Part shown: positions 37,998-40,959 of the stretch, one piece after another
How positions within the stretch are numbered: position 1 is the stretch's first letter
Layout: each line of letters opens with the position of its first letter
From: Escherichia coli O157:H7
GTDB taxonomy: Bacteria; Pseudomonadota; Gammaproteobacteria; Enterobacterales; Enterobacteriaceae
DNA: 64,000 nt
Direction: 5' to 3' (one strand)
Assembly: GCF_013167455.1 (NCBI RefSeq)
Contig: NZ_CP038328.1
The notes under the pieces: generated by a model
What the model was told of the DNA's origin: nothing
The model's database searches: none
The model's input: the letters and a program-made list of their open reading frames with translations, nothing else
Position numbers and translations under genes: made by a program

Positions 37998-38228
37998 ATG
38001 AACGCAAAAATCAGATACGGCCTGTCGGCTGCCGTTCTGGCGCTGATTGGTGCAGGGGCGTCTGCGCCTGAAATCCTCGACCAGTTTCTGGATGAAAAGG
38101 AAGGTAACCACACCACAGCATACCGTGATGGTGCGGGTATCTGGACCATCTGCCGTGGAGCCACCCGGGTGGATGGTAAGCCTGTGATTCCTGGCATGAA
38201 GCTGTCGAAGGGTAAGCGTACAGCCTGA
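37998..38228 (+). pseudogene. Phage lysozyme (GH24 endolysin), N-terminal ~70 aa only, interrupted by IS66-family element
   Basis: MNAKIRYGLSAAVLALIGAGASA signal/SAR-like N-terminus and catalytic E...D...T region EGNHTTAYRDGAGIWTICRGAT; the reading frame runs into the GTAAGCG IS terminus at 38212. Confidence 0.7.
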
Positions 38229-38303
38229 ACCGTCTGGTCAGAATCTGACGAATTAGACAAAGTGGTGTCCACCAAATAAGTAGTGGGAACCAAAGTATCA
38301 GAT

Positions 38304-38684
38304 ATGCAGAAAAATGTGACTCCCGGCAGGCGAAAAGGCTGCCCTAATTATCCTCCCGAATTTAAACAGCAGCTCGTTGCTGCCTCCTGTGAACCCGGGA
38401 TATCCATCTCAAAACTTGCTCTTGAAAATGGCATTAACGCCAATCTGTTGTTCAAATGGCGACAACAATGGCGCGAGGGAAAGCTGCTATTACCTTCTTC
38501 AGAGAGCCCCCAGCTACTTCCTGTGACTCTCGATGCAGCTGCCGAACAGCCAGAATCGCTCGCAGAGGACCCGGAAACCCTCAGTATCAGCTGTGAGGTA
38601 ACGTTCCGGCACGGGACGCTCCGCTTCAATGGCTATGTCAGCGAAAAGCTCCTGACTCTGCTGATACAGGAACTGAAGCGATGA
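38304..38684 (+). CDS. IS66-family accessory protein TnpA
   Basis: MQKNVTPGRRKGCPNYPPEFKQQLVAAS... HTH-like; first ORF of the IS66 unit. Confidence 0.65.
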   Translation: MQKNVTPGRRKGCPNYPPEFKQQLVAASCEPGISISKLALENGINANLLFKWRQQWREGKLLLPSSESPQLLPVTLDAAAEQPESLAEDPETLSISCEVTFRHGTLRFNGYVSEKLLTLLIQELKR

Positions 38685-39028
38685 TCCCGTTACCTTCCGG
38701 GACCAAAATTTGGCTGGTTGCCGGTATCACCGATATGAGAAATGGCTTCAACGGCCTGGCTGCGAAAGTACAAACGGCGCTGAAAGACGATCCCATGTCC
38801 GGCCATGTTTTCATTTTCCGGGGCCGCAGCGGCAGTCAGGTTAAACTGCTGTGGTCCACCGGTGACGGACTGTGCCTCCTGACCAAACGGCTGGAGCGTG
38901 GGCGCTTCGCCTGGCCGTCAGCCCGTGATGGCAAAGTGTTCCTTACGCAGGCGCAGCTGGCGATGCTGCTGGAAGGTATCGACTGGCGACAGCCTAAGCG
39001 GCTGCTGACCTCCCTGACCATGCTGTAA
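38681..39028 (+). CDS. IS66-family accessory protein TnpB
   Basis: 115-aa MIPLPSGTKIWLVAGITDMRNGFNGLAA...; typical IS66 orf2. Confidence 0.7.
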   Translation: MIPLPSGTKIWLVAGITDMRNGFNGLAAKVQTALKDDPMSGHVFIFRGRSGSQVKLLWSTGDGLCLLTKRLERGRFAWPSARDGKVFLTQAQLAMLLEGIDWRQPKRLLTSLTML

Positions 39029-39077
39029 ATCTCTTTATCCTGGTTGTCACAGAATAAGCCCGGTAAAATACGGGCTT

Positions 39078-39486
39078 ATGAACGACATCTCTTCTGACGA
39101 CATCTTCCTGCTGAAACAGCGCCTGGCCGAACAGGAAGCGCTGATCCACGCCCTGCAGGAAAAGCTGAGCAACCGGGAGCGCGAAATAGACCATCTGCAG
39201 GCGCAGCTGGATAAACTCCGCCGGATGAACTTCGGCAGTCGTTCCGAAAAAGTCTCCCGCCGTATCGCACAAATGGAAGCCGATCTGAACCGGCTTCAGA
39301 AAGAGAGCGATACGCTGACTGGTAGGGTGTATGACCCGGCAGTACAGCGTCCGTTGCGTCAGACCCGCACCCGTAAGCCGTTCCCTGAATCACTACCCCG
39401 TGACGAAAAGCGACTGTTGCCTGCGGCGCCGTGCTGCCCGAACTGCGGCGGTTCACTGAGCTATCTGGGCGAGGATACCGCCGAAC
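39078..39486 (+). pseudogene. IS66-family transposase TnpC, N-terminal fragment
   Basis: Leucine-zipper N-terminus and CCPNCGGSL zinc motif; the frame then runs into the IS629-like inverted repeat at 39487. Confidence 0.65.
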
Positions 39487-39528
39487 TGAACCGCCCCGGT
39501 TTTCCTGGAGAGTGTTTTATCTGTGAAC

Positions 39529-40419
39529 TCAGGCTGCCAGATCATCGTTTCCGATGGAAGCATAATAAGCTTTTTCTGCTTCTGCCGGAGGAGTATGGCC
39601 CAGCCTTCCCAGCAATCGTCGATTGTTATACCAGTCCACCCACGTTAGTGTGGCCAGTTCCACTTCTGCACGGTTTTTCCAGCTCTTACGGTGTATTACC
39701 TCCGCTTTGTAAAGACCATTGATGCTCTCAGCCATCGCGTTGTCATACGAGTCGCCTGTACTCCCTGTTGATGCCAGTAATCCGGCTTCTTTTAGTCGCT
39801 CCGTATAGGCCAGTGACACATACTGAGAGCCTTTATCGCTGTGATGGATGGTGCCAGACGGACGACGGGCCCACAACGCCTGCTCCAGCGCATCCAGCAC
39901 GAATGTCGTTTCCATAGACGATGAGACCCGCCACCCCACGATGTATCCGGCAAACACATCAATGATAAACGCCACATAGACGAAGCCCTGCCATGTGCTG
40001 ACGTAAGTAAAATCAGCCACCCACAGCTGGTCAGGTCGTTCTGCCACGAACTGACGGTTTACGCGGTCGCCTGCGGCAACGGCTTTCCGGCTGATGGTCG
40101 TACGGACCTTTTTACCCCGGAGAACACCGGCAAGTCCCATAACCGCCATGAGACGTGCCACTGTACATCTGGCCACCCTGATTCCTTCCCGTAACAACTG
40201 ACGCCAGACTTTACGCACACCGTACACCTGATGATTTTCATCGTATACGCGCTGTATCTCTCTCTTCAGCCAGTCGTCGTGCTGCGCACGGGCACTGCGT
40301 TTATCCGGATGATGTCGCTGTTGCTGACAATGGTAATACGTTGACGGGGCAATATGCAGTTCGCTGCATACCGGTCCGACCCCGTACTGCTCACGCAGCT
40401 TATCCAGCAGTGGCATCAT
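39529..40419 (-). CDS. IS3-family transposase OrfB (DDE domain; expressed by -1 frameshift from orfA)
   Basis: DDE integrase-fold motifs ([26 protein letters not shown]); overlaps the orfA 3' end. Confidence 0.8.
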
Positions 40420-40742
40420 TTTTTCCAGAGGCGGTCGAACTCCGCCTTCGCAAAATAAGCGGAAGCCTGGCGAAGGATATCGTTACTGCGGCGCAGTTCA
40501 CGATTTTCACGTTCCAGCTCTTTCAGACGCTGACGTTCAGCGCTGGTGAGCCCACCATCACCGCCCCCGGTATCCCGCTCATGCTGGCGAACCCAGACAC
40601 GCAGAGTCTCCGGCGTACAGCCAATCTTTGGGGCAATGGAACAAATTGCCGCCCACTGTGAGTCATATTCATCCTGACTTTCCAGAACCATACGAATCGC
40701 CCGCTGACGGACTTCGGGGGAAAAACGAGTATTTTTAGTCAT
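40416..40742 (-). CDS. IS3-family transposase OrfA (IS629-like)
   Basis: [51 protein letters not shown]... HTH plus leucine zipper. Confidence 0.8.
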
Positions 40743-40959
40743 CCTGTTTACCTCTTTCTCAGGGAGTTTAGTCTCCAGGATTTCCGGGGCGGTTCAGATG
40801 GCGCACTCATCACCGGACTGACCTTTCTTGCCCCCAAAGATGCCACACGGGTTCAGGGTTTTTTTCAGCATTTGCAGGTCAGGTTTGGTGACGGGCCGTG
40901 GCAGGATGTTAAGGGGCTGGATGAAGTGGGCAGTGATACAGGCAGAACAGGAGAATGAC

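Follow-up and report, generated by a model that had tools for sequence, protein, structure and literature searches.

Origin of a complete IS629 beside a truncated ISEc8 in prophage Sp17 of Escherichia coli O157:H7: probable scar of a late-region deletion

Results and discussion

How did a complete insertion sequence come to stand between half of another and the last codons of a phage tail-fibre gene? The arrangement was found in a window of 64,000 nucleotides, by which we mean the whole stretch of DNA that was analysed, and the locus is the lambdoid prophage Sp17 of E. coli O157:H7, integrated at ssrA and described in the literature as severely degraded and without excision or packaging. The stretch around the finding (4.3 kb, window 37600-41900) is 100% identical to strain Sakai (NC_002695.2), in whose annotation an 'ISEc8 Family: IS66 partial' abuts an 'IS1203 Family: IS3' at the same boundaries. 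The initial annotation of the window had described an IS629-like element nested in an IS66-family element and had proposed an IS-mediated deletion or recombination. As argued below, the junction is very probably the product of an IS629-associated deletion that removed the late region of Sp17 from a full-length ancestor.

Structure of the nested insertion sequences

The features of the locus are listed in Table 1. The ISEc8 fragment begins at 38212 with GTAAGCGTACAG, its left inverted repeat starting GTAAGCG, and retains the IS66-family gene order tnpA-tnpB-tnpC. It is identical at 1274 of 1275 positions to the full 2442-bp ISEc8 of PV15-279, which is flanked there by an 8-bp target duplication. 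When the window was compared with itself using BLAST, ISEc8 nt 1276-2442 were absent, together with the right inverted repeat of a complete element, and no second copy or fragment of IS629 or ISEc8 was found. tnpC is interrupted by IS629 after codon 136 of 512. The host gene of ISEc8 is annotated as a phage endolysin (ECs_3495), and its fragment matches Phage_lysozyme in Pfam. The final 8 nt of the fragment, GTCGAAGG, are the expected ISEc8 target, and the homologues in 493/89 and FRIK944, intact at 534 nt, are continuous through the site (...GTCGAAGG/AAAAATGCGAC).

Table 1. Features of the composite locus and the retained Sp17 arms (window coordinates)
Feature	Position	Strand	Remarks
Sp17 endolysin gene, 5' fragment	37998-38211	+	214 of 534 nt, 71 codons; truncated by ISEc8
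ISEc8 (IS66 family), nt 1-1275 of 2442	38212-39486	+	in phage endolysin gene
ISEc8 tnpA	38304-38684	+	Pfam HTH_Tnp_1
ISEc8 tnpB	38681-39028	+	Pfam TnpB_IS66
ISEc8 tnpC, first 136 codons	39078-39486	+	Pfam LZ_Tnp_IS66 (TnpC N-terminal)
IS629/IS1203 (IS3 family), complete	39487-40796	minus	exactly 1310 bp
IS629 IRR	39487-39511		inverted-repeat comparison
IS629 orfB	39529-40419	minus	Pfam HTH_21, rve, rve_3
IS629 frameshift pseudoknot	40345-40461		Rfam ALIL, 121.5 bits
IS629 orfA	40416-40742	minus	Pfam HTH_Tnp_1
IS629 IRL	40772-40796		inverted-repeat comparison
Sp17 tail-fibre gene, 3' remnant	40797-40958	+	last 53 codons and stop; distal deletion endpoint
Retained Sp17 right arm	40960-45519		ECs_3489, nleG6-3 pseudogene, espW, nleG8-2, espM2, dinI (Sakai annotation transferred)
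ssrA	45521-45883	minus	bounds Sp17 right arm

The IS629 element starts with TG, ends with CA and carries terminal inverted repeats of about 25 bp (TGAACCGCCCCGG... and ...CCGGGGCGGTTCA, 88% complementary). Its two frames overlap at 40416-40419, and RefSeq gives 'programmed frameshift' on identical copies. The element is 100% identical to the copy in Sakai SpLE3 and 99.9% identical to other O157 copies annotated as IS1203 or IS629 OrfB. The flanks read ...GCCGAAC on one side and GATGGCG on the other, without the 3-4 bp target-site duplication of a simple insertion; we attribute the unmatched AAC and GAT to deletion. Nor is this a simple nested insertion, in that only the 5' half of ISEc8 is present and the far flank is the tail-fibre gene. 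That remnant is translated in frame to its stop codon and matches the 3' end of genes for a 'prophage tail fiber N-terminal domain-containing protein'.

The earlier description of the nest thus holds to the base, from its extent (38212-40796) to the 1310-bp element with inverted repeats that cuts tnpC at 39487, and the differing aac and gat flanks and the missing remainder of the IS66 element are as it reported. Sequence comparison and the Sakai annotation now give the two elements their exact names, ISEc8 and IS629/IS1203. The event was also said to have joined a prophage remnant to an effector module; the joining stands, with the refinement that the right flank itself is the end of the tail-fibre gene, which immediately precedes the module.

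Full-length relatives and the DNA that was lost

Comparison of the junctions with related genomes, which the initial annotation had suggested, supports its proposal. Sp17 is full length in SF O157 strain 493/89 and in O157:H7 strains F3113 and PV15-279, where the stretch from the endolysin to the 3' end of the tail fibre is occupied by lysis, head and tail genes. In 493/89 and F3113 the DNA between the breakpoints comprises the endolysin remainder, ant, Rz, terminase, head, tail, J, Lom and tail-fibre genes, and the same right-arm effector module follows the intact tail fibre. In 493/89 the endolysin and tail fibre are intact and the arms are 99.8% identical to the window; many protein accessions of this prophage equal those at the Sp17 loci of other strains. 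The F3113 arms are 99.6-99.96% identical, the left-arm alignment ends exactly at 38211, and the tail fibre is unbroken at the breakpoint (...GGATACAGAT/GGCGCACTC). In PV15-279 the right breakpoint is uninterrupted at 99.1% identity. An IS-associated adjacent deletion predicts this pattern, an intact IS with the intervening DNA held in the same order by relatives, and the deletion proposal is supported by all three strains.

These comparisons show that ancestral Sp17 was full length, with both endolysin and tail fibre intact. Measured against 493/89, about 25,850 bp are missing from the window, and against F3113, 26,764 bp; typical (A6-type) O157:H7 is shown to have lost ISEc8 nt 1276-2442 together with some 25.8 kb of prophage DNA. 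Short clusters of mismatches in the DUF6645 and endolysin genes show gene conversion with other prophages, so the F3113 late region need not equal the DNA that was lost.

The junction between IS629 and the tail fibre is common to at least 209 complete genomes, and all those read are typical O157:H7. The true count is probably about 283, since the right flank is found at 99% identity or more in about 285 records and two spot-checked examples are identical in structure; on the same spot checks, a second configuration behind the difference between 209 and about 285 was rejected. None of the A4- and A5-type relatives examined has the junction, in agreement with published IS629 site typing, in which the chimeric sites of Sp17 and SpLE3 were amplified in A6 strains only (Rump 2011).

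As a consequence, Sp17 is unable to lyse, package or build particles, and the scar accounts for its being a dead prophage. The loss leaves espW, nleG8-2 and espM2, its genes for type III effectors, stably fixed beside ssrA in typical O157:H7. Beyond such bookkeeping the scar is of little importance.

Origin of the junction

Three steps would account for the arrangement. ISEc8 would have inserted at endolysin nt 214, and IS629 would then have entered ISEc8 tnpC at AAC (nt 1273-1275), within a GCCGAACAGC motif. Finally, the DNA from the IRL end of IS629 to the GAT of the tail fibre would have been lost, leaving the IS intact and its flanks unmatched. For this last step we favour, at roughly even confidence, a direct adjacent deletion driven by the IS629 transposase, possibly aided by the O157 IS-excision enhancer (IEE), whose gene iee is ECs_1305 in Sakai and lies outside the window.

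Each junction is no more than 5 bp away from an independent simple IS629 insertion at another locus, and because of this proximity both look transposase-made. In strain 10671 such an insertion, in the same orientation and with a GCC duplication, occupies ISEc8 nt 338-340, pO103 has an IS629 relative at ISEc8 nt 350, and another prophage has a simple insertion 5 bp from the tail-fibre breakpoint (duplication CGC, same orientation). The GCCGAACAGC motif occurs in ISEc8 at nt 330-339 and 1269-1278, and IS629 insertion there is repeated elsewhere. The probability that two random ISEc8 junctions share this motif context in phase is about 6e-5. Resemblance of the tail-fibre endpoint to an IS629 inverted repeat was considered and rejected, since 27% of positions score equally well.

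Intermediates were sought among 5,426 complete genomes. In none of them is the Sp17 endolysin interrupted by an intact ISEc8; apparent matches proved to be the H2495 inversion described below or ISEc8 at other sites, such as the YdfR gene in FRIK944. None joins the ISEc8 right end to the 3' part of the endolysin, and the 79% matches in the reciprocal-junction search were two-piece artefacts at SpLE3. Since no intermediate is present in this collection, we infer both the order of the three steps and the sub-mechanism.

The main competitor to direct deletion is a variant of the same overall event. IS629 would have been present twice in the same orientation, with an AAC duplication in ISEc8 and a GAT duplication in the tail fibre, and RecA-dependent recombination of the two copies would have deleted the 27 kb between them and left one hybrid copy. 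The tail-fibre site, 5 bp from a simple insertion in the same orientation, suits this route, as does the frequency of IS629 insertions in the 3' regions of tail-fibre genes, and in H2495 the Sp17 copy has in fact recombined with that of SpLE3. Against it, none of the 5,426 genomes holds an IS629-AAC-ISEc8 nt 1276 onwards junction, as an ISEc8 with IS629 and its AAC duplication would, and none of the complete genomes searched has the tail fibre up to GAT followed by IS629, where only nearby independent insertions were found. The IS629 of the F3113 ydfJ prophage was rejected as a partner, being 105 bp away with its own duplication. The route also needs one insertion event more than a direct deletion. 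We regard it as quite possible while leaning against it. The two routes are nearly equivalent and cannot be distinguished by the final sequence, which is the same for both.

It is very improbable that double-strand breaks followed by microhomology end-joining made the joint, with IS629 a mere bystander. The IS629 end shares a 2-nt microhomology (CA) with the native tail-fibre sequence, and end-joining activity has been reported for IEE. A match of 2 nt is nonetheless expected by chance in 1 of 16 cases, neither end of the IS lacks a single base, and the two joints are each no more than 5 bp from an independent simple IS629 insertion.

The SpLE3 copy and the H2495 inversion

About 388 kb from Sp17, SpLE3 carries an identical IS629 with reciprocal flanks, GAT and AAC, adjoining ISEc8 nt 334-2442. 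The initial annotation had named the missing IS66 3' half with a matching duplication as the observation that would speak against its reading, and SpLE3, with an ISEc8 3' part next to AAC, comes near. It is not the missing half. Its ISEc8 overlaps the Sp17 fragment at nt 334-1275 (942 bp), with a difference between the two at nt 423. This copy is present also in F3113 and PV15-279, and the Sp17 endolysin of F3113, the one examined of these two strains, is without ISEc8. The SpLE3 ISEc8 is a separate, older copy.

In strain H2495 the Sp17 IS629 has recombined with the SpLE3 copy, giving an inversion of about 388 kb with flanks AAC/AAC and GAT/GAT; the Sp17 copy is therefore still a recombination substrate. 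The Sakai order from ssrA to pitB is collinear with F3113, PV15-279 and 493/89, which makes H2495 the derived state. An ancestral inversion that exchanged the flanks of the two copies, with the SpLE3 ISEc8 as the missing partner, would fit their complete identity, mutually inverted orientation and reciprocal triplets as well as the exchanged arrangement of H2495, but is largely refuted and hardly credible, given the overlapping ISEc8 parts and the derived state of H2495, and given that the flanks, when re-paired, do not form a natively contiguous sequence and that efa1 is unrelated to the tail-fibre gene, GAT being native to each. None of the inversion and duplicative-inversion scenarios considered between Sp17 and SpLE3 restores natively contiguous flanks, and as the origin of the junction they were rejected.

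The SpLE3 structure (efa1'-IS629-ISEc8 partial, in the OI-122 island) resembles that of Sp17 in its unmatched flanks, its internal ISEc8 position, the same GCCGAAC/AGC motif and a one-sided loss, here of the efa1 3' part. It differs in that the deletion lies at the IRR side rather than the IRL side and ISEc8 nt 334-2442 are kept. The event also appears older, since A5-type strains have an apparent IS629 footprint there.

A cryptic, sequence-directed target preference of IS629, with GCCGAACAGC and the tail-fibre ACAGATGGCGC as recurrent targets used in fixed orientation, could underlie these recurrences. We think it rather unlikely, and it conflicts with a study that found no IS629 target preference (Rump 2011). 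If true, the reciprocal AAC and GAT flanks of Sp17 and SpLE3 would go back to shared targeting, or to a coupled event, at the time when typical O157:H7 emerged. The triplets common to the two copies are accounted for only in part: AAC matches because of the hot-spot motif, and for GAT a coincidence of 1 in 64 has to be accepted.

Comparison with known systems

Replicative intramolecular transposition of IS1, IS26 and Tn3 yields adjacent deletions in which the IS is retained with one of its original flanks, the other flank being the new target, and no target duplication is made. IS629, as an IS3-family element, moves by copy-out-paste-in through a circular intermediate, and its deletion chemistry differs from theirs. 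Unmatched flanks are common for IS629: of 47 sites in O157, only 21 have matching duplications and the other 26 have none (Rump 2011). For the IS3 family, one-sided adjacent deletions with the IS retained are described (Kanai 2022; Kusumoto 2011 as cited by Calvo 2023), and IEE-dependent IS629 deletions can be as short as a few nucleotides or exceed 40 kb. As these accounts present them, such deletions resemble that of Sp17 in the loss beside one inverted repeat, in a variable length reaching tens of kilobases and in an IS that sometimes stays intact. They differ in being laboratory events on plasmids or marked loci, and most IEE events remove the IS too.

The Sp17 scar of the window does not differ from that of Sakai Sp17, where it is already annotated, and it belongs to an ordinary, known kind of IS-mediated prophage decay. 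What is added here is the reconstruction of the lost content and of the ancestral state, and, as a mildly new point, the evidence for local IS629 insertion hot spots.

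Two insertion sequences at the Sp17 breakpoint

The initial annotation of an IS66-family element interrupted by a 1310-bp IS629-like element with inverted repeats was borne out in all its coordinates (see table). The plus-strand ORFs are tnpA, tnpB and a shortened tnpC of ISEc8 (Pfam HTH_Tnp_1, TnpB_IS66 and LZ_Tnp_IS66), and the minus strand carries orfA/orfB of the IS3-family element (HTH_Tnp_1 plus HTH_21/rve). IS629 is intact to its final base at either end, and its immediate flanks are unmatched, as had been noted (...GCCGAAC on the left, GATGGCG... on the right, read from 37700-41300). 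In strain PV15-279 a full ISEc8 measures 2442 bp and is flanked by an 8-bp target duplication; the window copy corresponds to nt 1-1275 of it, differing at a single position, and lacks nt 1276-2442. That the remainder is absent beyond IS629 was confirmed by a BLAST of the window against itself, which returned no second copy or piece of ISEc8 or IS629, and by the right flank, which translates in frame as the C-terminal end (53 residues) of a tail-fibre protein from a prophage.

Features of the insertion sequence pair
Feature	Position	Strand	Sequence or source
ISEc8 left end, IS66 family	start 38212	plus	GTAAGCGTACAG..., read from sequence 37700-41300
IS629, 1310 bp	39487-40796	minus	terminal inverted repeats TGAACCGCCCCGG... 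and ...CCGGGGCGGTTCA
ALIL, IS3-type frameshift pseudoknot	40345-40461	minus	Rfam

The 4.3 kb around the pair (37600-41900) are 100% identical to Sp17 beside ssrA in strain Sakai, whose record draws identical boundaries, placing 'ISEc8 Family: IS66 partial' (1275 bp) directly against 'IS1203 Family: IS3' (1310 bp). ISEc8 was inserted after nt 214 of the 534-nt endolysin gene, and the tail-fibre remnant is followed by ECs_3489, an nleG6-3 pseudogene, espW, nleG8-2, espM2, dinI and ssrA. A 214-codon ORF at 39078-39722, pseudogene ECs_3492 in the Sakai annotation, fuses the 136 initial codons of ISEc8 tnpC to 78 codons running antisense through the IS629 end. Sp17 has been described as severely degraded, with neither excision nor packaging, and as two tandem prophages, Sp17a and Sp17b (Asadulghani 2009). 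Its left arm also holds a partial IS30 in the Sakai annotation (window ~30206-31021), where strain F3113 has a different 542-bp stretch.

Full-length relatives and extent of the loss

Comparison of the junctions with related genomes, which the initial annotation had proposed, recovered the missing region. The sorbitol-fermenting O157 strain 493/89 carries a complete lambdoid prophage at ssrA with endolysin and tail fibre intact and the same effector module next to it; the arms match the window at 99.8% identity, and many of its protein accessions are those found at Sp17 loci of other strains. The late region is also complete in the O157:H7 strain F3113 (arms 99.6-99.96% identical), whose left-arm alignment stops exactly at 38211, and the right breakpoint is uninterrupted in PV15-279 (99.1% identity). 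The latter two strains have a distinctive SpLE3 junction in common, and PV15-279 has a plasmid of the pO157_2 type, as does the A5 strain G5101. These findings agree with the PCR results of Rump et al., in which the chimeric IS629 sites of Sp17 and SpLE3 amplify in A6 strains only, and full-length Sp17 is therefore the ancestral state. Relative to 493/89 the window lacks ~25,850 bp of prophage DNA, and relative to F3113 26,764 bp (a 614-bp IS629 remnant included), in addition to 1167 bp of ISEc8. The window arrangement is common to at least 209 complete genomes, and probably to ~283.

Several further differences were seen in F3113. Its arms differ from the window at few positions outside two short patches, 36249-36285 (DUF6645 gene) and 38050-38117 (5' part of the endolysin gene), which look like gene conversion from paralogous lambdoid prophages. 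The 614-bp remnant (L008, the F3113 Sp17 locus, 12642-13255) retains the IRR end only, lies at codon ~102 of the endolysin gene and rejoins it at a 2-nt microhomology; it records a separate IS629 event in this gene. The tail-fibre gene has a frameshifting 23-bp deletion just 3' of the window breakpoint, by comparison with the window remnant (40797-40863). Near ypjA, F3113 (12783-14969 in its own sequence) has an additional IS629, whose flanks do not match (AAC/CTG), and ~0.9 kb where the window has 89 bp (22202-22291), a further IS629-associated structural difference.

Proposed mechanism of the deletion

The full-length prophages of 493/89 and F3113 support the earlier proposal of an IS-mediated deletion or recombination joining the prophage remnant to the effector module, and we regard it as very likely that the structure arose from a full-length ancestor through an IS629-associated deletion. 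Both junctions look like products of a transposase rather than random breaks: the IS ends are complete, and independent simple IS629 insertions are known nearby (see below). In experiments, IS3-family elements delete the DNA beside one inverted repeat while the IS is kept intact, and a direct adjacent deletion driven by IS629 from its IRL end is the route we favour, at about even chances. Recombination between two IS629 direct repeats ranks second, a plausible but less probable route that would leave the same final sequence. Neither an intermediate nor a reciprocal junction was found in the 5,426 complete genomes searched, and the deletion steps are therefore those we infer.

A matching IS66 3' half had a near-miss only, beside AAC in Sakai SpLE3 (L005 6091-9509), where an IS629 100% identical to the window copy lies between shortened efa1 (...AAACTGAT) and ISEc8 nt 334-2442 (AACAGCC...), with flanks reciprocal to those of Sp17 (GAT/AAC versus AAC/GAT). 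This is not the missing half, because the ISEc8 stretches of Sp17 and SpLE3 have a 942-bp overlap with a difference at nt 423, GAT is native to efa1 and to the tail fibre alike, the Sakai ssrA...pitB order is that of 493/89, F3113 and PV15-279, and both F3113 and PV15-279 carry the SpLE3 copy of ISEc8, F3113 having no ISEc8 in its Sp17 endolysin gene. The GAT/GAT match between the copies remains a 1-in-64 coincidence. In strain H2495 (L003 9488-10797 and L018 11456-12765) recombination between the two IS629 copies has inverted roughly 388 kb of the chromosome; the resulting AAC/AAC and GAT/GAT flanks mimic target duplications, and neither copy is a simple insertion.

In SpLE3 of F3113 (L009 ~23452-23476) and PV15-279 (L010 ~25750), the sequence passes from efa1 (nt ~293) into ISEc8 (nt ~349) via TGAACCGC, which equals the initial 8 nt of an IS629 inverted repeat and is one base away from a pure ISEc8 reading. 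The A5-type junction may therefore be the footprint of an IS629 later excised with flanking DNA, a reading that depends on that single base.

Possible IS629 targeting and comparison with known cases

Simple IS629 insertions occur at ISEc8 nt 338-340 in strain 10671 (L015 3255-4564; duplication GCC, 4 bp from the SpLE3 site) and, in AUSMDU00014361, in the homologous tail-fibre gene of another prophage (L017 6308-7617; duplication CGC, 5 bp from the tail-fibre breakpoint), and an IS629 relative on pO103 lies at ISEc8 nt 350 (L016 3265-4574; 14 bp from the SpLE3 site). All three are independent and in the same orientation, and those in 10671 and pO103 are both near the SpLE3 junction at nt 334. 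The 10-mer GCCGAACAGC occurs twice in ISEc8, and the Sp17 (nt 1275) and SpLE3 (nt 334) junctions fall at the same phase of it, a shared context with a chance probability of ~6e-5. Local targeting is the simplest explanation because insertions recur near ISEc8 nt 334-350, and these positions suggest local IS629 hot spots; Rump et al. did not find a target preference for IS629. The feature as a whole is an already annotated, ordinary case of IS-mediated prophage decay in O157:H7.
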